A stretch of 64,000 bases of DNA from Candidatus Latescibacterota bacterium (GCA_963791045.1 CAWBQK010000017.1:288001-352000); one strand, 5' to 3'. Positions 4,972-17,358 are shown, counted from the first letter of the stretch. A program made the numbers and translations. Notes: a model not told the origin generated them from the sequence alone.

Positions 4972-7101
4972 ATGATCGGTCGGCGAATAAAACAATACGA
5001 CATCGTCGAGGAAATCGGCGGCGGTGGAATGGGCGTTTTATACAAAGCCCTCGACACCAGGCTCAAACGCCACGTCGCGCTCAAATTTCTCCCACCCGAG
5101 TTGACGAGAGATCTTGCCGCGAAGGAGCGGTTTATCCGCGAGGCCAGGGCCGCGTCAACCATTCAACATCCCAATATCTGCACCATCCATGAGATCGACG
5201 AGACCGATGACGGCCACATGTTCATCTGTATGGAATTTTACGAAGGGGAGACGCTCGGCGAGAGGCTTTCACGAGGGCCGCTCGAGGTGGACGAGGCAGT
5301 CCGTTTTGTGATTCAGGCCGCGCAGGGACTGGCAAAGGCACATGAAGCGGGGATGGTTCATCGCGACATCAAACCGGCCAACATAATGGTGACCGGTGAC
5401 GGCCTGGTCAAAATACTCGATTTTGGTTTGGCGAAACACGGCGGCGCCTCGATATCGAAGAAAGAACCCACCGCCGGTACCGTCATGTACATGTCTCCCG
5501 AACAGGCCAGCGGCTCCGGTGTCGATGGGCGTTCGGACATCTTCTCACTCGGCGTGGTTCTCTATGAACTTCTTTCAGGTGACGCGCCATTCAAAGGCGA
5601 CAACGACGCCGTAATAATGTACTCGATCGCGAATCTCGATCCCGCCTCTCTGACGACAATTCGTGAAGACGTATCGTCCAAGCTAGACCGGGTCGTTTTC
5701 AAGGCTCTCGAGAAGGACAAGGCGCGACGATACCAGGTCGTCGACGAGTTTCTGGCGATGCTCAAAGGCTGGTTGCGGGCGCATGAGACCGGCCAAGGGG
5801 AAGAGGAGCCCGGGCAGCCGTCGATTGCCGTCCTTCCATTTGCAAACATGAGTACAGACAAAGACCAGGATCACTTCTGTGATGGGATGACGGAAGACAT
5901 AATTAACAACCTTTCGCAAATCGCGGGGCTTCGCGTCGCTGCGCGCACGTCGTCATTTGCATTTAAAGGAAAGCGAAAGGATATACGTGAGATCGGCCAA
6001 CATCTTGGGGTGGAGACGATTCTCGAGGGTGGCGTGCGCAAGGCGGGGAACCAGTTAAGGATTACCGTACAACTCATCAATATCGAGAATGGCTATCAGA
6101 TGTGGTCGGAGCGTTATGATCGTGATTTCGAGGACGTCTTTGCCGTACAAGATGAGATCGGCCGAAACATCGCGGGCGCCCTGGAAGTGCAGTTGACCGA
6201 ACGAGACGAACGGGTCCTGCAAAAAATCCAGACTCGCGACGCCGGCGCCTACGATTTCTACGTGCGGGGCAGAGAGAGTTTTCATCGGCTCGGATTGAAG
6301 CCGCTCGAACGCGCGCGAAATCTCTTCACCAGTGCCTTTATTACCGACCCCGAATATGCCCTGGCCTATTGCGGTCTCGCCGACTGTCACTCGGTTCTTT
6401 ATCTCTATTTCGACAACGACAAGACAAATCTGGAGATTGCGCTCACGGCGAGCAAGAAAGCTCTCGATCTGGCGCCGGACCTCGCGGAATCTCACGCCTC
6501 GCATGGCCTCGCTGTCACATGTGACAAACGTTATGACAAGGCGGACGAAGAATACGCTAGAGCCATCGAACTCTCTCCAAGGCTGTTTGAAGCGTATTAC
6601 TATGCCGGGCGGACGCATTGGGTGCGGGGGGACCTGGAAACGGCCGTGGAGTACTTTATCAAAGCGAGCGAGGTGAGACCCGAGGACTATCAGGCGCTGC
6701 TTCTGGCGGCCAACGCGTTCAAAAGCCTGAACCGTCCGACGGAATTCGAAGAATTGTGCCGCAGGGGGCTCGCCGTAGCGGAAACACACCTCGAATACGA
6801 GCCCGATGATACACGGGCATGGTATCTGGGCGCTCAGGCGCTGATGTGCCTTGGGGAGCGTGCCAAGGCCGTCGAATGGGTTCAACTCGCCCTGGCCCTG
6901 GAACCGAGCGATTCGCTCACACTCTATAACTCGGCCTGTGTGTACAGCGAGGCCGGAATGCTCGACACGTTCTTTGGCTACTTTGAGCAGGCGATGAGCA
7001 GTGGGTTTCTCATGAGGGCATGGATAGAAAACGATCCCTACCTTGACAACGTCAGACAGGAACCCCGATTTCAAGAACTGGTCGACAAAATGCCCTCCTG
7101 A
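4972..7101 (+). CDS. Hanks-type Ser/Thr protein kinase with TolB-like (adenylate-cyclase-associated) domain and TPR repeats
   Basis: GGGGMGVLY, VALK, HRDIKPAN, DFGLAK, GTVMYMSPEQ; then SIAVLPFANMS...ARTSSFAF; TPR-rich C-terminus. Confidence 0.93.
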   Translation: MIGRRIKQYDIVEEIGGGGMGVLYKALDTRLKRHVALKFLPPELTRDLAAKERFIREARAASTIQHPNICTIHEIDETDDGHMFICMEFYEGETLGERLSRGPLEVDEAVRFVIQAAQGLAKAHEAGMVHRDIKPANIMVTGDGLVKILDFGLAKHGGASISKKEPTAGTVMYMSPEQASGSGVDGRSDIFSLGVVLYELLSGDAPFKGDNDAVIMYSIANLDPASLTTIREDVSSKLDRVVFKALEKDKARRYQVVDEFLAMLKGWLRAHETGQGEEEPGQPSIAVLPFANMSTDKDQDHFCDGMTEDIINNLSQIAGLRVAARTSSFAFKGKRKDIREIGQHLGVETILEGGVRKAGNQLRITVQLINIENGYQMWSERYDRDFEDVFAVQDEIGRNIAGALEVQLTERDERVLQKIQTRDAGAYDFYVRGRESFHRLGLKPLERARNLFTSAFITDPEYALAYCGLADCHSVLYLYFDNDKTNLEIALTASKKALDLAPDLAESHASHGLAVTCDKRYDKADEEYARAIELSPRLFEAYYYAGRTHWVRGDLETAVEYFIKASEVRPEDYQALLLAANAFKSLNRPTEFEELCRRGLAVAETHLEYEPDDTRAWYLGAQALMCLGERAKAVEWVQLALALEPSDSLTLYNSACVYSEAGMLDTFFGYFEQAMSSGFLMRAWIENDPYLDNVRQEPRFQELVDKMPS

Positions 7102-10277: not shown

Positions 10278-10306
10278 TTGCAAACTTATTGATATTGAAT
10301 TATCAT
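10278..10306 (+). promoter_or_regulatory. Sigma-70 promoter overlapped by a Fur/Zur-box-like inverted repeat
   Basis: TTGCAA-17 nt-TATCAT; TGATATTGAATTATCA (10290-10305) resembles TGATAAT-n-ATTATCA. Confidence 0.65.
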
Positions 10307-10341: not shown

Positions 10342-10716
10342 ATGCCAGCGCGACGTAACACTCAGCAACGCGCGGCGATTCTCGATGCCCTTGAAGAAAT
10401 TGGCCGGCCGCTCACCGCTGAAGAGATTCACGCGGAGGCGAAGAAACGTGCCCGAGGCCTGGGAATCGCCACCGTTTATCGAAATTTGAAGACGATGATC
10501 GGCGAGGAGAAACTCGCGATCGTTGACCTTCCTGGAGAACCGTCTCGTTACGAGATCGCCGGGAAAGCGCACCATCACCACTTTGTTTGTGATCTGTGCG
10601 AACGTGTGTTTGAGATCGAAAACTGTTCGTCAAATGTCCTGGAGATGACACCGCGAGGATTCCGTCTCGACCGCCATGAGGTAATACTCTACGGCCGCTG
10701 CGCGGATTGCCTTTAG
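10342..10716 (+). CDS. zur: Fur-family metalloregulator, probably Zur
   Basis: TQQRAAIL, GIATVYRNL, HHHHFVCDLC and C-terminal CADC; heads a znu operon. Confidence 0.85.
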   Translation: MPARRNTQQRAAILDALEEIGRPLTAEEIHAEAKKRARGLGIATVYRNLKTMIGEEKLAIVDLPGEPSRYEIAGKAHHHHFVCDLCERVFEIENCSSNVLEMTPRGFRLDRHEVILYGRCADCL

Positions 10717-10729
10717 ATCTTCTCGAAAG

Positions 10730-11668
10730 ATGTCACAACTCACCGCCAGACTATTATATTCCGCCATCGCCCTGGCGATCTTGTTCGCGATTTGTCCGGT
10801 CGAAAAGGCGGGCGCCGGACCGCCCCAGCAGCAGGGAACCGGCATGTTGACGTGTACCGTCAGCATTCTGCCGCAGAAGTATTTTGTTGAGAGGATTGCC
10901 GGCGAGCATGTAGTTGTTGATGTGATGGTCGGTTCAGGCCAGTCGCCCGCCACATACGAACCCACGGGTCGGCAGCTTTCGGCTCTGTCCGATTCGCGCC
11001 TGTATTTCTCGATCGGAGTCGCGTTCGAACAAACGCTTTTGCCGCGAATTAAAAGAAGTTTTGAGGGCGTCGATGTGATCGATTCGTCCGCGGGAATTGA
11101 ACGCAGAAGAATGGCGGAGCACACCCACCATGGAGATGGGGAAGACAGCAACCGTGATCTCGGCGTCGACGATCCGCATGTCTGGCTTGCCCCGGACAAC
11201 GCCATTCGGATCGCGGAGAACATACGTTTTGCCCTGTGCAGACACGATCCGGCGAGGACGTCAATATACAATCGAAATTTTGAAGCGCTCAAGTTGGAGT
11301 TACACCAAACAGACATCCTCGTCGCTGAAATTCTTTCCACCCATTCGGGACAGGAGATTTTTGTATTTCACCCCGCATACGGCTATTTCACCGATGAATA
11401 CGGACTGATTCAAGTGCCCATCGAGGTAGCGGGCGGCACGCCCGGACCCAGGCACCTCGCCGGAATTATCGATCACGCGAAAGCTGAGTCAGTGTCCACC
11501 ATTTTTGTCCAGCCGCAATTCTCACCGTCCTCCGCCCAGACCATTGCGCGGACGGTCGGCGCGGAGATACACACATTGGATCCGCTCGCTGAAAATTACT
11601 CCGAAAACCTGGTTATAATGGCGAGAAAGATCGCGGCGGCGCTGCCGACACGCACGGCGAAGGAATAA
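10730..11668 (+). CDS. znuA: Zn/Mn ABC transporter substrate-binding protein
   Basis: SPATYEPT, His-containing loop EHTHHGD, DPHVWL, VFHPAYGYF, LDPL. Confidence 0.9.
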   Translation: MSQLTARLLYSAIALAILFAICPVEKAGAGPPQQQGTGMLTCTVSILPQKYFVERIAGEHVVVDVMVGSGQSPATYEPTGRQLSALSDSRLYFSIGVAFEQTLLPRIKRSFEGVDVIDSSAGIERRRMAEHTHHGDGEDSNRDLGVDDPHVWLAPDNAIRIAENIRFALCRHDPARTSIYNRNFEALKLELHQTDILVAEILSTHSGQEIFVFHPAYGYFTDEYGLIQVPIEVAGGTPGPRHLAGIIDHAKAESVSTIFVQPQFSPSSAQTIARTVGAEIHTLDPLAENYSENLVIMARKIAAALPTRTAKE

Positions 11669-11693
11669 TCTGAAACGCATTGTGGGAGCCGTA

Positions 11694-12446
11694 ATGACGA
11701 AGGAAATTGTTATCGCCGTCCGGGATGTCGACTTTTCGTACGATCGTCACAATCTCATTCTCGAGGGCGCGACTTTTGACATATTGAAACACGAGTTCGC
11801 CGCTGTGATTGGCCCAAATGGTGGTGGGAAAACTACCCTTCTCAAACTGATACTGGGTCTGATTGAGCCTTCAAGGGGGACCCTCCGGGTATTTGACGGC
11901 CGGGTGGCCAACGCAAGACGACGAATTGGGTATATGCCTCAATATCCGCGGCTCGACCATGACTTTCCCGTCACTGTTATGGATGTTGTTCTTATGGGGC
12001 GTTTGGGACAGACGAGGGTTATGGGTCCATTTCGGCGAACGGACATCGAAGCAGCCGAGGCAGCGCTTGAGGAGACAAGCTGTTTCGACCTGAGAAATCG
12101 TCCATTCTCGGCTCTTTCGAGCGGACAGCGGCAGCGAATCTTGATCTCGCGAGCACTGGCGTCCGACCCTGAGCTTCTCATGCTCGACGAACCGACATCC
12201 AATCTCGACCCGTCCGTCCAGGACGATATACAGGATCTCCTTCACACTCTCAACGAAAGAATGACAATCATTGTCGTCTCTCATGATGTCGCGTTTGTGT
12301 CCAAGTATGTAGAGAAGGTAGTTTGCGTGAACAGGACGGTGGCTCTCCACCCGACGTCGGAAATGAAGGGTGAACTGATAACAATGCTTTATGGAAACGC
12401 GGATGTGCGGCTTGTGGATCATGAGCATCATTCGCACGACGGCTGA
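11694..12446 (+). CDS. znuC: Zn/Mn ABC transporter ATP-binding protein
   Basis: GPNGGGKTT, IGYMPQ, LSSGQRQR, LMLDEPT, VSHD; His-rich tail. Confidence 0.92.
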   Translation: MTKEIVIAVRDVDFSYDRHNLILEGATFDILKHEFAAVIGPNGGGKTTLLKLILGLIEPSRGTLRVFDGRVANARRRIGYMPQYPRLDHDFPVTVMDVVLMGRLGQTRVMGPFRRTDIEAAEAALEETSCFDLRNRPFSALSSGQRQRILISRALASDPELLMLDEPTSNLDPSVQDDIQDLLHTLNERMTIIVVSHDVAFVSKYVEKVVCVNRTVALHPTSEMKGELITMLYGNADVRLVDHEHHSHDG

Positions 12447-12470: not shown

Positions 12471-13358
12471 ATGCTAGATTTCATACATGCGGTTGCGAGT
12501 CACGCGTTCATGCGTAACGCGCTGATAGCGGGCGTTCTTGCAAGCGTCGCGTGTGGTGTTATAGGCACTTATGTGGTTACGCGACGAATATCTTTGATTG
12601 CGGGAAGCCTGGCACACTCCGTCCTGGGGGGGATGGGTGCCGCCTACTATTTTAAGACGGTTAACGGATGGACCTGGCTTCACCCATTGCACGGCGCGGT
12701 GGTGGCGGCATTACTTGCGGCCGTGATTATCAGTCTTGTGAGAATGTATGGACGCGAAAGAGAAGACACGGTGATCTCCGCGTTGTGGGCGATCGGGATG
12801 GCCATCGGGGTCATGTTTATTGTGAGGACGCCCGGATACAAAACTGATCTTATGACCTACCTTTTCGGAAATATTATAATGGCGGACGACCGGGCGATCC
12901 AGCTGCTGGTGATACTCGATGTGCTGATCGTTGGGGTGGGGCTGCTGTTTTATAAACAGCTTCTCGCCGTATGTTTCGACGAAGAATTCGCCAAACTTCG
13001 CGGGGTAAGCATCGGGTTCTTTTATACGCTTCTCTTGTGTCTTACGGCGCTAACCATCGTAACACTTATTTACGTGGTCGGGATCGTCATGGTTATCGCG
13101 TTGATGACCCTTCCCGTCGCGATAGCGGGGAAATTTTCAAAACGTCTCCTGCAAATGATGATTCTGGCATCGCTGTTGAGCGCACTGTTCACGACGGGCG
13201 GTCTCGCGCTCAGTTACGGGCCGGACCTTCCCCCCGGCGCGACGACCATACTGCTCGCCGGGGCGGTTTATGTGCTGGTCAATTTGGCGGTATTTGCACG
13301 GGGAAGGCTTGGGGCCCGTTTCCAACGTGGCAAACGGACTCAAGATGGGTTAGATTAG
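12471..13358 (+). CDS. znuB: Zn/Mn ABC transporter permease (ABC-3)
   Basis: CGVIGTYVV, SLAHSVLGG, YLFGNI, FDEEFA, VGIVMVIALMTLP, DLPPGATTI. Confidence 0.92.
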   Translation: MLDFIHAVASHAFMRNALIAGVLASVACGVIGTYVVTRRISLIAGSLAHSVLGGMGAAYYFKTVNGWTWLHPLHGAVVAALLAAVIISLVRMYGREREDTVISALWAIGMAIGVMFIVRTPGYKTDLMTYLFGNIIMADDRAIQLLVILDVLIVGVGLLFYKQLLAVCFDEEFAKLRGVSIGFFYTLLLCLTALTIVTLIYVVGIVMVIALMTLPVAIAGKFSKRLLQMMILASLLSALFTTGGLALSYGPDLPPGATTILLAGAVYVLVNLAVFARGRLGARFQRGKRTQDGLD

Positions 13359-13371
13359 TATTTGAGTTATT

Positions 13372-15504
13372 ATGTGGTCTATTACGCAAGAAACCATACG
13401 AATTCTGAATGAGTCCGCGGGCTATCTCCTTTTTGGATTTCTCCTTGCCGGACTGCTCAACGTTCTCCTCAACCGGTACCGCCGTATCACCGGCATCCTG
13501 TCGGCGCCCGGTCAGAAGCCTGTATTCCTCGCCGCTATTCTTGGCGCTCCGCTCCCACTGTGTTCATGCAGTGTTCTTCCAACCGCGCTTACGCTCAGAA
13601 AGCAAGGCGCGAGCAAAGGGGCCACCGCGTCCTTTCTCATTTCCGTGCCGGAAACCGACATCATTTCGATCGTCCTCACCTATGCGTTGTTAGGCCCCGT
13701 CCTTGCTATCGCGAGGCCTGTGTCCGCGGTGATTACGGCGATTGTCACCGGGATAGTCATCAACGCGGTGGAGGCACGGTCAAAAGACATCTCGTCTGCG
13801 CCCTCGACTAACAAAAAGGGCGGGAGCGACGGTCAGAAAGAGAACGGGCTCGAACCCAAAAAGAGTGCGGCGCCGAAATCTGCTGATTCGCCGCCCGGCG
13901 GACACTGGCTGGTCAGAGCGCTTCGCTTCGGGTTTGTCGAGATGTTCGACGACATCATGGGCCAACTTTTTATTGGTATCATTATCGCCGGCGCAATTGT
14001 TGCCTGGTTCCCGTCCCTCAACGTTCAGGAGATGGTCGGTTCCTCGTTCCTCACGTACTTCGTGATGCTGGGAGTAGGCATTCCGGTTTACGTCTGCGCG
14101 ACGGCGTCAACACCGGTGGCCGTGGGGTTGATCGCCGGTGGCGTGAGCCCTGGGGCGGCACTCGTCTTTTTGCTCGCGGGTCCCGCGACAAACATCGCAA
14201 GCCTCGTGGTCCTCAACCGCCAGTTTGGCAAAAAGATCCTGGCGGCATACCTGGTTTCCATTGGAATCGTGAGCCTCGCTTTCGGAATTGCTCTCGATTG
14301 GTTGATCGGACCCGATTACTCCGTCAGGCACCTCGTCATGGATCCTCTTGCCGAGGCCGGTGCTGGTAAAGTCCAGATCGCCGGAACGATTCTCCTCCTC
14401 TTTCTTGTCGGGCTCAGTTTTCGCAGAACCGGAATATTGAAAACGTGGGTGATCTCGGCTTCAAAAAGATTCAGGATCTCGGTGCCCCCGCGGACGGTAG
14501 TGATATCGCTCCTGGCCGTACTGGCGCTCGGTTATCTCTGTAGCGGATTGTTCGTGGTGGATCCTGGAGAAAGAGCGGCGGTGAAGCGATTCGGAAGGAT
14601 AACCAACGGATATCTCCAGCCGGGGCTACACTATCGATGGCCGTTCCCGTTTGGAGTCGCGGATGTCGAATCGGTCACGCTTCTGCGCAGAGTCGAGATT
14701 GGCTTCAGGTCGGATCAGGGCGACTTCATGGCGCTGTCCGCGGAGGATGAGGGCCCGTTCGTTTCGGAGGCGTGGATGCTCGCGGGCGACGAAAACATCG
14801 TCGATGCGCGTTGCGCCGTCCAGTACCAGATCATAGATACTGAAGAAGCCTTTGGGAACTTTGTATACGGTGTCAAGGACAAGACGGCCCTGGTTAGAAA
14901 CGCCGCGGAGTGGGCGCTGAGAAAATCCGTTTCGACCAGGGGAATCGACTCGCTTCTCACCGTCGATCGCGGCGAAGTAGAACACGAAATTAAAACCATC
15001 TTTCTGCAGAGCCGTCTCGATGCGTGCGCCTCGGGCGTGCGGGTTGTGGATGTGAATCTCGAGTCGGTTCACGCACCGGCCCCGGTACACTGGGCCTTCA
15101 GGGATGTAGCCAGCGCCGTGGAAGACCAACGACAGAAGGAAAATATTGCGCGGGAATACTGGGAGCGAACGACGCTTGGCGCCGAGGGGGAAGCGTCGGG
15201 TGTCCTGTCGCAGGCGGACGGCGAGGCGATCGAGCGGGTGCAGAGGGCGATGGGGGACGGTTACGCGTTCGATGCCCTGCGGAAGGTTTACACTCAAGCG
15301 CCCGAAGTCACGGAAATTCGTCTCTATCTCGAGTGGATGGACAGGTTCCTCCCCGGGATGAACAAATACGTGGATCTCATGCCGAGCGGCCGCGGCGGTC
15401 GCGATGTTTGGCTTCGCATGGGACGGGATTCAAAAAAGGGAGCCGAAGGAATGATTAAGGAATTCGAGCTCCCCTGGTCAAGCGATCGGGAGGATACGCA
15501 GTGA
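13372..15504 (+). CDS. Fusion of a DUF318/ArsP-type (SO_0444-like) permease with an HflK-like SPFH domain
   Basis: Permease motifs GAPLPLCSCSVLP, FLISVPET, PVYVCATASTP, GAALVFLLAGPATN. From ~14500: TM-GLFVVDPGERAAVKRFG, PGLHYRWPFP, LAGDENIVD, PVHWAFRDV, APEVTEIRLYLE. Confidence 0.9.
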   Translation: MWSITQETIRILNESAGYLLFGFLLAGLLNVLLNRYRRITGILSAPGQKPVFLAAILGAPLPLCSCSVLPTALTLRKQGASKGATASFLISVPETDIISIVLTYALLGPVLAIARPVSAVITAIVTGIVINAVEARSKDISSAPSTNKKGGSDGQKENGLEPKKSAAPKSADSPPGGHWLVRALRFGFVEMFDDIMGQLFIGIIIAGAIVAWFPSLNVQEMVGSSFLTYFVMLGVGIPVYVCATASTPVAVGLIAGGVSPGAALVFLLAGPATNIASLVVLNRQFGKKILAAYLVSIGIVSLAFGIALDWLIGPDYSVRHLVMDPLAEAGAGKVQIAGTILLLFLVGLSFRRTGILKTWVISASKRFRISVPPRTVVISLLAVLALGYLCSGLFVVDPGERAAVKRFGRITNGYLQPGLHYRWPFPFGVADVESVTLLRRVEIGFRSDQGDFMALSAEDEGPFVSEAWMLAGDENIVDARCAVQYQIIDTEEAFGNFVYGVKDKTALVRNAAEWALRKSVSTRGIDSLLTVDRGEVEHEIKTIFLQSRLDACASGVRVVDVNLESVHAPAPVHWAFRDVASAVEDQRQKENIAREYWERTTLGAEGEASGVLSQADGEAIERVQRAMGDGYAFDALRKVYTQAPEVTEIRLYLEWMDRFLPGMNKYVDLMPSGRGGRDVWLRMGRDSKKGAEGMIKEFELPWSSDREDTQ

Positions 15505-16391
15505 AAACAATCGGAAGCGCGGTTTTATTTGTGGTCCTGATGGTTCTCATCGGAACCGCGCTATTTTTTGTCGATGAGACCGAATATGCCATCGTCCTTC
15601 GGTTCGGGCAGCCGACCCAGACGATCACATCAGCCGGGCTAAAAGCCAAATGGCCATGGCCCATCGAGAATGTTGTTCGGTTTGACCGTCGTCTTATGGT
15701 GTTCGATGTTCCCGCCGTGGACGAACCACCTCGCGAATTTCTTACGCTCGATAAGAAGAACATCGAGGTGTCGAGTTATACCTGCTGGCGGATCGATGAC
15801 CCCCTCCATTTTCTGCAAACGGTAGGGGACCGCGAAGGCGCGGAGGCCTACATACGCGACATTGTTGTTTCCGAAAAAGGAAAGCTGCTCGGCAGAAACA
15901 ATCTTAGCGCGCTGGTCTCCGTGGTGCCGGAGCAAATTCGACTGGACTCGATAGCCGCGGAGATTCGAAACACCTGTAACGACGTCGCGATGAGAGAATG
16001 TGGGGTTCGCGTCATCGATTTTCGAATGAAGCGGATCAATTACCCCGAGCAAAACCGCAATAGTGTTTTCGAGCGGATGAGAGCCGAGCGCAAACAGATC
16101 GCGACGCGTTACAGAAGTGAGGGCGAGAAAGAGGCAAGCCGCATCCGCGCGGAAGCCGACCGGCGCCGAATGGAGATTCTCGCCACGGCGACACGAACGG
16201 CCCTCGAAACCAAGGGAAACGGGGAAGCGGAAGCGGCACGGATATACAACGAGGCGTACGGGAAGAACCGGGAGTTTTACCAGTTTTTGCGCACGCTGGA
16301 ATCGTATGAAACCTCGATGGACGAGGGCACGACGATTTTGCTTCCATCGTCTATGAAGTACCTGAGAACACTTCTCGATCCGGTTCGGTGA
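15501..16391 (+). CDS. hflC: HflC-like SPFH membrane protein
   Basis: VDETEYAIVLRFGQP, LTLDKKNI, WRIDDP, VFERMRAERKQIA, EFYQFLRTLESY; 4-nt overlap with the upstream gene. Confidence 0.9.
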   Translation: MKTIGSAVLFVVLMVLIGTALFFVDETEYAIVLRFGQPTQTITSAGLKAKWPWPIENVVRFDRRLMVFDVPAVDEPPREFLTLDKKNIEVSSYTCWRIDDPLHFLQTVGDREGAEAYIRDIVVSEKGKLLGRNNLSALVSVVPEQIRLDSIAAEIRNTCNDVAMRECGVRVIDFRMKRINYPEQNRNSVFERMRAERKQIATRYRSEGEKEASRIRAEADRRRMEILATATRTALETKGNGEAEAARIYNEAYGKNREFYQFLRTLESYETSMDEGTTILLPSSMKYLRTLLDPVR

Positions 16392-16422
16392 CAGACCGTC
16401 GCATGAGTGGGATTGTGTTTTC

Positions 16423-17358
16423 ATGCCGGACAGAAACATGAACGATACAAAATACGAGAATATACAACGAGGGTTGGCGGGTCGCCGGAAGTATGGCTGG
16501 ATTGCGCTATCTGTGGTCCTTGTGTGGTTGGCGACCGGGTTTTATACCGTGGATTCGAATCAACGCGGCGTCATCACGCGTTTTGGCAAGGTTCGGGGTA
16601 GAACGCCCCCCGGAATTCACTATGCGCTTCCACGACCCATCGATCGTGTGTTTACCCCGGCAACGACTGAGGTCCGCAGGATCGAAGTGGGGTTTCGCTT
16701 GAAAGGAGAGTTGTGGGCGGAGAAACGCCGTTCGGATATGCTCACCGGGGACCAGAATATCCTCAAGGTTATGATGGTTGTGCAGTATAAAATACGCGAG
16801 CCGGAGAAATATCTCTTCGATGTTTCGGAGCCGGATTGGCTTGTCGAGCGCGCGATCGAGTCGGCGATGTCCGCGTACATATCTCGTGTGTCCGTGGATG
16901 ACGTTCTTACCACCGCCAAGGCCGAGATCGAGATACGCACCGTCGAAGGCGCCCAAGCATTGCTCGATCACTATGGTGTTGGCGTGTCGCTCCTGACGGG
17001 CAACCTCCAGGTGGTTTCGCCGCCAGTGCCGGTCATCGAGGCGTTCAACGATGTGGCGCGCGCGAAGAAAGACAGCGAACGCACGATTGAAGACGCTCGT
17101 GTATATTCGAACGAGATCATTCCAAGATCCGAAGGGGAAGCGGAAGGCATCACGAATGCTGCCGGCGGTGCTTACGAGATGCGTGTCAAACAGGCGCATG
17201 GACACGCAAAACGATTCAACGATCTTCTCGTGGAATACAACCGTGATCGTAGTCTCACCAAACAACGATTGTACCTGGAAACAGTGGAGAGGGTTCTGTT
17301 AAAAACAAAAGTGGTAATCGTTGATGACAGTTCGACCGTCACCATCATCGAAGATTAA
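16423..17358 (+). CDS. hflK: HflK-like SPFH membrane protein
   Basis: WLATGFYTV, GVITRFGK, PGIHYALP, MLTGDQNI, PVIEAFNDV, IPRSEGEA, TKQRLYLETVE. Confidence 0.9.
   Translation: MPDRNMNDTKYENIQRGLAGRRKYGWIALSVVLVWLATGFYTVDSNQRGVITRFGKVRGRTPPGIHYALPRPIDRVFTPATTEVRRIEVGFRLKGELWAEKRRSDMLTGDQNILKVMMVVQYKIREPEKYLFDVSEPDWLVERAIESAMSAYISRVSVDDVLTTAKAEIEIRTVEGAQALLDHYGVGVSLLTGNLQVVSPPVPVIEAFNDVARAKKDSERTIEDARVYSNEIIPRSEGEAEGITNAAGGAYEMRVKQAHGHAKRFNDLLVEYNRDRSLTKQRLYLETVERVLLKTKVVIVDDSSTVTIIED

Follow-up and report, generated by a model that had tools for sequence, protein, structure and literature searches.

A metal permease fused to an HflK-type SPFH subunit and encoded with its own HflC and HflK in uncultured bacteria

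SPFH proteins (HflK/C, stomatin, prohibitin, flotillin) form membrane cages, and the contents of most bacterial ones are largely unknown. We analyzed a 64,000-nucleotide stretch of DNA from a Candidatus Latescibacterota bacterium (GCA_963791045.1, CAWBQK010000017.1:288001-352000; hereafter the window, which lies on contig C17 of the genome), in which positions 13,372 to 17,358 encode a metal permease joined on one chain to an HflK-type SPFH protein, followed by an HflC and by a second, cargo-free HflK. In this case the client is identified by the genes, since a metal pump is joined to a cage subunit. The trio is a genuine, conserved form of the SPFH cage theme into which a metal pump has been built; it occurs widely among uncultured bacteria and seems to be undescribed.

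The gene run and its fusion protein

The three genes close a run of seven open reading frames (ORFs) on the plus strand, separated by successive gaps of 13, 13, 24, 13, -4 and 31 nt in the ORF listing; the start of hflC overlaps the stop of the fusion by 4 nt.

10342-10716, + strand: Fur-family ORF, 124 aa (Pfam FUR, 83.1 bits)
10730-11668, + strand: ZnuA-family periplasmic metal-binding protein, 312 aa (Pfam ZnuA, 204.8 bits)
11682-12446, + strand: ABC ATPase, ZnuC/MntA/AztA-like, 254 aa (Pfam ABC_tran, 92.9 bits)
12471-13358, + strand: ABC-3 membrane permease, ZnuB/AztB-like, 295 aa (Pfam ABC-3, 220.8 bits)
13372-15504, + strand: permease::HflK fusion ORF, 710 aa (ArsP_1 and Band_7 on one chain)
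13372-14409, + strand: fusion residues 1-346, SO_0444-family (ArsP_1) metal permease
14410-14487, + strand: fusion residues 347-372, short Arg/Lys-rich linker, predicted cytoplasmic
14488-15504, + strand: fusion residues 373-710, complete HflK-type module
15501-16391, + strand: dedicated hflC, 296 aa, GTG start (TIGR01932)
16423-17358, + strand: dedicated cargo-free hflK, 311 aa (TIGR01933)

A preliminary description of this DNA, made from the sequence alone, had read the 710-aa ORF as a complete permease joined to a full HflK-like SPFH domain, bearing the motifs LCSCS and YVCAT and followed in the same packed run by HflC at a 4-nt overlap and then by a second HflK. A profile search placed PF03773 and PF01145 on one chain, both motifs stand in the translation (residues 63-67 and 240-244), and the downstream ORFs lie exactly as described. 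No Rfam family was matched between positions 7000 and 21000 of the window.

The permease half matches ArsP_1 (PF03773) over residues 11-307 (157 bits, profile positions 12-291 of 294) and, at near full-length coverage of the model, exceeds the curated cut-off of NF033936, the 'SO_0444 family Cu/Zn efflux transporter' (333.1 bits against 300; residues 9-346, profile positions 2-347 of 351). According to the accessible part of a preprint, a Cys-Ser-Cys motif is conserved in the SO_0444 family (bioRxiv 10.1101/2022.07.06.499078), and the fusion carries this motif as C64-S65-C66; these three residues and C242 are invariant among 37 fused homologues. Hydropathy predicts about 10 membrane helices in this half, and its modelled fold resembles carriers of the ion-transporter superfamily, with Z values that are middling for helical proteins: 11.6 for Pho90 and 10.9 for ArsB, 267 residues being aligned in each, with further matches to YdaH, INDY and TRAP-QM (about 230-280 aligned residues across the carriers).

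In the second half, Band_7 (PF01145) covers residues 394-594 (Pfam, 50 bits). The HflK model TIGR01933 scores 153.9 bits on residues 394-661, a marginal miss of its 159.4-bit cut-off, and the HflC model TIGR01932 reaches only 26.9 bits on the fused SPFH part, far below the HflK score there. An AlphaFold2 model of the fusion built from a 37-row alignment (predicted local distance difference test score 81.4, predicted template-modelling score 0.63) places permease helices at 2-312 and 333-353, a short helix at 355-367, an anchor helix at 373-390, the SPFH domain at 393-567, a 73-residue helix at 570-642, a further helix at 644-659 and two C-terminal strands. Its top match in VIA-align was Escherichia coli HflK (7vhp_E; Z 18.5, root-mean-square deviation 7.2, 263 of 267 residues aligned at 28% identity), with model residues 375-666 set against residues 79-341 of that chain, and the best Foldseek matches were 9cz2 and 7vhq (E about 1e-13). 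The loop that precedes the anchor (351-368) contains six Lys or Arg and no Asp or Glu, and R352 is nearly invariant in the 37 fused homologues; a loop of this kind is compatible with the topology of HflK (N-terminus inside), with the linker in the cytoplasm and the SPFH part in the periplasm. By its predicted structure, the fused part lacks none of the structural elements of a cage-forming HflK, namely the anchor, SPFH domain, long helix, cap segment and cytoplasmic N-terminus.

The two free partners each have one N-terminal membrane helix by hydropathy (residues 6-24 of HflC and 25-43 of HflK) and score above the cut-offs of their own family models, HflC with 207.7 bits against 134.4 for TIGR01932 and the free HflK with 225.7 bits against 159.4 for TIGR01933.

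Distribution and descent of the fusion and its partners

A word-indexed search of 5.8 billion proteins with the fusion returned 2839 proteins at E <= 0.001 among 8000 scored candidates. PF01145 and PF03773 occur together in 118 of the 120 best 90%-identity clusters, which are 621-790 aa long and 36-59% identical to the query, with 93-100% query cover save for a few exceptions. NCBI organism labels of the best clusters are Latescibacterota, Phycisphaerae/Planctomycetota and Krumholzibacteria metagenome-assembled genomes (MAGs). The annotations leave a gap, in that database names show a permease ('SO_0444 family Cu/Zn efflux transporter' or 'permease' at NCBI) or an HflK ('HflK protein' at JGI), not both. 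The preliminary description had made its reading depend on the presence of the fusion in related genomes; one of 40 relatives, G012 of the same family, carries it at full length (58% identity over query residues 1-708), and in 17 others the match (E <= 1e-87) covers the permease alone and stops near residue 310-374.

A scan of one genome per GTDB species gave 594 confirmed loci, and in the best 80 of these all ORFs of at least 60 aa were searched by phmmer with the window's own proteins. The permease is fused in 25 loci and unfused in 55. In each of the 24 fused loci that have downstream DNA, the fusion is followed on the same strand by HflC and then HflK (L046 is a 1.6-kb contig, and the HflK of L036 is cut by the contig end), so the gene order seen in the window, for which the preliminary description had proposed a neighborhood survey, is fixed; no HflC or HflK was found by phmmer beside the unfused permease in any of the 55 loci. 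The fused loci come from Phycisphaerae/Planctomycetota, Eisenbacteria, Acidobacteria, Thermoanaerobaculia, Zixibacteria, Tectimicrobiota, Binatia, 'Deltaproteobacteria', Gemmatimonadetes and Burkholderiales. Across many phyla, both dedicated partner subunits are retained wherever a fused locus extends downstream.

No other conserved partner was apparent among 110 neighboring ORFs of 8 of the 24 fused loci scanned with Pfam (ATP synthase, MutS and others were found), and none of these 110 belonged to the NfeD family; in the remaining 16 loci the neighbors were scanned only by phmmer with window-derived queries. A phmmer search with the genome's FtsH, run against every ORF of 91 loci and also against the window's first 30 kb and four more loci, gave only one weak AAA match (54 bits) beside the module. 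An extra HflC lies about 1.2 kb upstream of the trio in a Burkholderiales MAG (L096:2643-3623, + strand). Separately, the unfused SO_0444-type permease ORFs of seven loci (L048, L054, L055, L060, L061, L083 and L088) are 560-760 aa long; their extra length is N-terminal to the permease and may reflect over-called starts or another kind of fusion.

That two neighboring genes had been joined artificially, by misassembly or a frameshift, can be set aside. Indel errors are possible in this assembly, since its ftsH is split over three frames. Four public read sets, none of them listed as RNA, had small word shares (0.05-0.15), and their contigs (60-379 nt) include none that spans the permease-SPFH junction (about 14380-14560). 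Two such contigs do span the fusion/hflC boundary (15480-15651) without indels. The same full-length architecture stands in 118 of the 120 best clusters, from independent sources, as well as in 25 genome loci and, at 58% identity, in G012; moreover, an indel breaks a frame and would not create a 710-aa frame that is homologous throughout. For practical purposes the artefact explanation is refuted. As for ftsH itself, the genome's only Peptidase_M41 locus (G000:C11:410667-411232) matches in three reading frames, which corresponds either to two frameshifts in ftsH or to assembly indel errors.

The trio is also distinct from the housekeeping HflK/C of its own genome (81% complete, 21 contigs, eight Band_7 matches). 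A housekeeping hflK-hflC pair (339 and 306 aa) lies at C11:262071-263710 and scores 283.8 and 255.8 bits, above the module genes; ftsH (about 410.6-412.3 kb) and hflX (116416-117465) are on the same contig C11. The preliminary description, which had found neither ftsH nor hflX near the trio and had taken the trio to be paralogous to, and not the genome's only, HflKC pair, is borne out on these counts. An hflK-hflC pair was found in all 11 relatives whose loci were retrieved, and G012 keeps a canonical pair elsewhere in its genome. Among five other fusion-bearing genomes, G041 and G045 have the canonical pair besides the trio, G043 has the fused trio plus a second, different trio, and no second hflK/hflC pair was found in G042 and G044, for which completeness is not given. 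Another SPFH protein of the window's genome (G000:C13:85330-85761) has an N-terminal membrane helix and Band_7, then a type I phosphodiesterase/nucleotide pyrophosphatase domain and TPR repeats, and runs off its locus (L008:1-2010, - strand) after at least 670 aa.

We built trees (FastTree, and IQ-TREE quick search under LG+G4) from 107 SPFH rows comprising 26 fused SPFH parts, 26 module HflK, 26 module HflC, the extra HflC of L096, and 14 housekeeping proteins each of HflK and HflC. K-type and C-type sequences separate with support of 100. Module HflK forms one clade (98 in both trees), as does module HflC together with the extra L096 copy (99, FastTree), and housekeeping HflC (95) and housekeeping HflK (89) each form one clade apart from the module genes. 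When the 26 fused SPFH parts were held as one clade, the likelihood was better than in the free quick search (p-AU 0.877 in the approximately unbiased, AU, test). Sub-clades are common to all three module genes (window and G012; L027-29; L032-34 and 36; L062, 65 and 70; L038, 44 and 52; L043, 56 and 79), which indicates that the three genes were inherited together.

Other pumps of the same design and the metal context

The same arrangement recurs on a second pump family. When the free HflK was used to search for longer proteins, all ten recovered (P0247-P0256, 868-1113 aa) combined E1-E2_ATPase, Hydrolase and Band_7. In all five tested, the N-terminus matched the heavy-metal P1B ATPase model TIGR01525 (532-561 bits) and the C-terminus matched the HflK model TIGR01933 (126-217 bits); the CPC motif is invariant in these P1B ATPase::HflK fusions. 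Both recovered metagenome loci (L149:4896-10225 and L154:4821-10152) continue from the P1B fusion to HflC and HflK. In an ESM Atlas search with the SPFH half of the window's fusion, PF03773 being left out, only ordinary HflK/Band_7 clusters were returned.

A third pump type may be represented by the second trio of G043 (G043:C77:120059-123207), in which a fusion protein, P0124, is followed by an HflC-like and an HflK-like gene. Its pieces are:

L133:1054-3150, - strand
L124:1075-2151, - strand
L124:1-1068, - strand

P0124 is 698 aa long and consists of an N-domain of about 310 aa, with six to seven helices and no Pfam family, and an HflK-like part. Its family has 231 matches in the word-indexed search, and the N-domain alone has 829 representatives at 50% identity, of which 265 reach E <= 1e-30; among the best 150 it almost invariably forms the N-terminus of a protein of 650-850 aa. 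Pfam Cation_efflux was matched in 11 of 37 family members at E <= 0.1, at best with 28.8 bits over two helices. A fold search ranked ZnT3 first (Z 15.2, 210 residues aligned), followed by SLC30A10 (Z 15.1, 182 aligned), above generic four-helix bundles at Z <= 13.5. A profile of the N-domain found no cation diffusion facilitator (CDF) among PDB sequences at E <= 1, and hhalign against the genome's own CDF gave a probability of 2.2%. With sequence comparisons weak or negative and the fold search alone favoring CDF carriers, a CDF-like N-domain is suggested and at most plausible. A further long SPFH protein, P0125 (L126:481-2580, + strand; G042:C4), has 699 aa with Band_7 at 341-554; its long N-terminal region has no Pfam match and no apparent polytopic membrane domain.

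The preliminary description had named the upstream genes zur-znuA-znuC-znuB. Fur-family, ZnuA-family, ABC ATPase and ABC-3 genes are indeed there, and the Zur and ZnuA identities are plausible without being established. None of the upstream genes reaches the NCBIfam Zur/ZnuABC equivalog cut-offs (ZnuA PRK09545, 90.1 bits against 268). The nearest solved relatives of the regulator are Mycobacterium tuberculosis FurB/Zur (2o03, 62.8 bits) and Campylobacter jejuni Fur (61.3 bits), so that by sequence it is plausibly Zur-like, a choice these scores leave undecided. That of the binding protein is Synechocystis ZnuA (1pq4, 185.8 bits). This protein has a short His-rich loop and lacks the canonical three-His zinc site, the first ligand being Ala (SPATYEP against DPHTYEP in Synechocystis ZnuA) and the other two His being kept; Ala stands at this position in five of eight permease-linked ZnuA proteins (shared by L030, L041, L042 and L059, and absent from L062 and L065). 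Upstream of the regulator, a promoter-like site at 10278-10306 (+ strand; TTGCAA-17-TATCAT, 9 of 12 consensus matches) has its -10 hexamer overlapped by an inverted repeat, TGATA-N6-TATCA (10290-10305), which is a candidate Fur-family, autoregulatory operator.

The preliminary description's zinc-regulated microdomain holds for part of the family only. Genes for znuCB or znuACB adjoin the fusion in 5 of the 24 other fused loci (upstream in L030 and L078; downstream in L062, L065 and L070), as they do in the window. They also adjoin unfused permeases of the window's own clade (L041, L042, L059 and L017-L021), so the link is not a property of the fusion, and no znuABC was found in the 16 kb retrieved around the G012 trio (about 8 kb downstream, 4 kb upstream). 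Twenty of the 55 unfused permeases have a regulator directly upstream, of the ArsR family in 15 cases and the MerR family in 5; among the 12 window ORFs scanned with Pfam there is no MerR or ArsR regulator, and the ZntR-type control of Shewanella is thus absent from these ORFs. Genes for ZIP-family transporters were seen beside one fused locus (L031:6323-7042, - strand), on the opposite strand and overlapping another ORF call, and beside one unfused SO_0444-type permease (L106:7207-7986, + strand).

What is known of the family points outward. In the accessible part of the Shewanella oneidensis study, growth under ZnSO4 or CuCl2 stress required SO_0444, which was complemented and shares an operon with a ZntR-like gene (PMC3219624); in that of a Shewanella loihica preprint, Shew_3410, beside ZntR, is highlighted under zinc stress (bioRxiv 10.1101/072470). 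Judged from NF033936, the Shewanella genetics, the ArsR/MerR context and the analogy with P1B ATPases, efflux is moderately favored as the direction of transport. The architecture proposed in the preliminary description stands as the best hypothesis; its zinc-regulated microdomain, taken as one for uptake, is a weaker reading than one linked to efflux, given that the family genetics concern Cu/Zn efflux.

Uptake deserves to be weighed all the same, because a permease of an efflux family in an operon of the uptake type is physiologically puzzling. The permease might acquire metal together with ZnuACB under a Zur-like repressor, the SPFH assembly organizing an uptake patch. The close packing of the seven one-strand genes (gaps from -4 to 31 nt), headed by a Fur-family gene and a promoter-like inverted-repeat site, speaks for this, as do the recurrence of ZnuCB/ZnuACB beside fused and unfused permeases and a binding protein closest to Synechocystis ZnuA. 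The family model and genetics pointing to efflux, the ArsR/MerR genes upstream of unfused relatives, the use of the same SPFH design on P1B ATPases, which are exporters, the G012 trio with no znuABC within the retrieved distance, and a regulator whose identity as Zur is not established all speak against it, and we regard uptake as rather unlikely. This alternative concerns function only and leaves the architecture as it is.

A proposed cage for a tethered pump and its known relatives

In E. coli, HflK and HflC alternate to form a large periplasmic cage over a fenced membrane patch. By analogy, we propose with moderate confidence that the trio forms a dedicated SPFH ring or cage in which a metal exporter is tethered to some of the K-type subunits. 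The cytoplasmic C-terminus of the permease would lead through a linker of about 25 residues to the membrane anchor of a complete HflK-type SPFH protein, and the fusion, HflC and free HflK, anchored in the inner membrane, would co-assemble into a ring or cage that faces the periplasm. Its HflC positions would alternate with K-type ones, fused or free, in a mixed stoichiometry, and some of the K-type subunits would bear the transporter, so that the pump would be held permanently in or at the fenced patch. Such an assembly would presumably work independently of FtsH. The probable role of the free HflK is to space out the bulky cargo and thereby let the ring close: a cargo-free HflK is strictly kept in all three pump families, which suggests that not every K position can carry a pump. 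The metal transported is most likely soft and either divalent or monovalent (Zn/Cu type), and its most likely direction is outward.

Several observations weigh against this proposal. The fused SPFH part lies just under the HflK equivalog cut-off, both free partners pass equivalog models defined as 'FtsH modulator', and the module ends a Fur-family/znuACB run of the uptake type, which is odd for an exporter. G042 and G044, without a second hflK/hflC pair, could use the trio as the partner of FtsH. In a tree of the permease half (26 fused, 64 unfused), fused and unfused proteins are interleaved, with 10 state changes, at least 5 of them forced by starred branches; a single ancestral clade of fused permeases was rejected (log-likelihood difference 473, p-AU 2.6e-5), the clade having been named for the AU test after the tree was seen. 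The permease half of the window is nearest to an unfused protein of G010 (62% identity) and then to the fused one of G012, and the same-family relatives G010 and G008 have the permease without any SPFH gene. Interleaving and SPFH-less close relatives together indicate that the cage part is dispensable for the permease as such. The simplest reading of the trees is one old fusion followed by repeated loss of the SPFH part and its partners; transfer of an SPFH cassette between permease lineages would be a further possibility. Around unfused permeases, a tblastn search for SPFH relics over 17 loci gave only two matches at E <= 1, both at chance level, and so no direct sign of a recent loss.

Some of these points suit a trio that acts as an FtsH adaptor, enclosing FtsH hexamers and placing the pump beside the protease for regulated turnover or quality control. 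The equivalog models passed by the module HflK and HflC are those named 'FtsH protease activity modulator', HflK/C-FtsH complexes are the closest solved structures, and no other hflK/hflC pair was found in G042 or G044. In the accessible part of one study, HflK Arg191 is cited as an FtsH contact (PMC12048511). The fusion keeps two Arg of housekeeping and E. coli HflK near that contact, the mapping of contact residues being ambiguous; in the alignment to 7vhp_E, position 191 is Ala and Arg stands at 185 and 193. In the free module HflK, Glu and Ser stand in place of the two Arg kept by the fusion. A higher-scoring housekeeping pair is present in the same genome, pairs are also present in G012, G041 and G045, the module genes form their own clades, and the module loci searched contain no ftsH beyond the weak AAA match. 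Taking both sides together, we judge an FtsH adaptor to be unlikely.

It is more doubtful still that no closed cage is formed and that the SPFH part and its partners serve as a clustering or stabilizing scaffold, a lipid-microdomain tag or an allosteric regulator, in open arcs or small oligomers. Open, asymmetric HflK/C assemblies do exist, according to the accessible part of the same study (PMC12048511), and an SPFH part that is repeatedly lost or gained without loss of the permease fits an accessory regulator. The fusion, HflC and HflK nevertheless all keep the anchor, SPFH domain, long helix and C-terminal strands, and strict retention of a C-type and a free K-type subunit in 24 of 24 loci points to a defined hetero-oligomer.

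The proposed exporter cage can be taken further. The trio may represent a new class of SPFH cage for metal exporters, free of FtsH, with the pump (an SO_0444-type permease, a P1B ATPase or a CDF-like domain, N-terminal on an HflK-type subunit) built covalently into the cage wall and a periplasmic chamber over it that HflC and the cargo-free HflK would help to close. Zn or Cu leaving through the pump would enter a confined space, as a detoxification vestibule or as a metallation chamber for periplasmic proteins, and such a role could explain an exporter in a zinc-starvation operon. We consider this stronger form improbable as a whole. The trio is a minimal, genetically defined system of three proteins in which to ask what an SPFH cage does for a transporter, and it bears on the arrangement of mixed K-type subunits and on whether HflK/C-type cages can act free of FtsH; the same solution is used on a second pump family, and possibly a third.

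Literature searches returned no description of an SPFH/HflK-transporter fusion, which agrees with the preliminary description, to which no characterized system of this architecture was known; subscription journals lay largely outside these searches, so absence is unproven. The nearest relatives by structure are the E. coli HflK/HflC-FtsH complexes (7VHP, 7VHQ, 7WI3, 9CZ2, 9PAW). Like them, the module combines K-type with C-type SPFH subunits, in all of which a single N-terminal membrane helix is accompanied by a periplasmic SPFH domain, a long helix and a C-terminal cap segment, and in its genes a K-type gene is followed by hflC with overlapping stop and start. Unlike them, it has three subunit types instead of two, in the order K(fused), C, K, and the cytoplasmic N-terminus of one K-type subunit bears a metal permease of 10 helices; its descent is separate, neither ftsH nor hflX is nearby, and its client would be covalent, whereas FtsH is recruited.

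The permease half resembles SO_0444 and Shew_3410 of Shewanella in passing NF033936 and keeping the CSC motif; those permeases stand alone behind ZntR (MerR-type), and that of the window is fused to HflK behind a Fur-family gene and znuACB. QmcA-YbbJ of E. coli (SPFH-NfeD; 8Z5G, Z 15.2) is likewise an SPFH cage encoded with a dedicated membrane partner, but there a separate chain, a small NfeD protein, serves as the partner. The closest functional precedent is human stomatin, whose domes, in the accessible part of the report, enclose aquaporin-1 as well as UT-B, a transporter of urea (PMC12407830; PDB 9ZD2, 9OH9). Both are SPFH oligomers with specific channels or transporters in their footprint, if the analogy holds, and stomatin chains match the fusion with Z values of 14.7-15.1; stomatin, however, is a homo-oligomer on the cytoplasmic face with non-covalent clients, whereas the module described here would be hetero-oligomeric and periplasmic, with its client fused to the cage.

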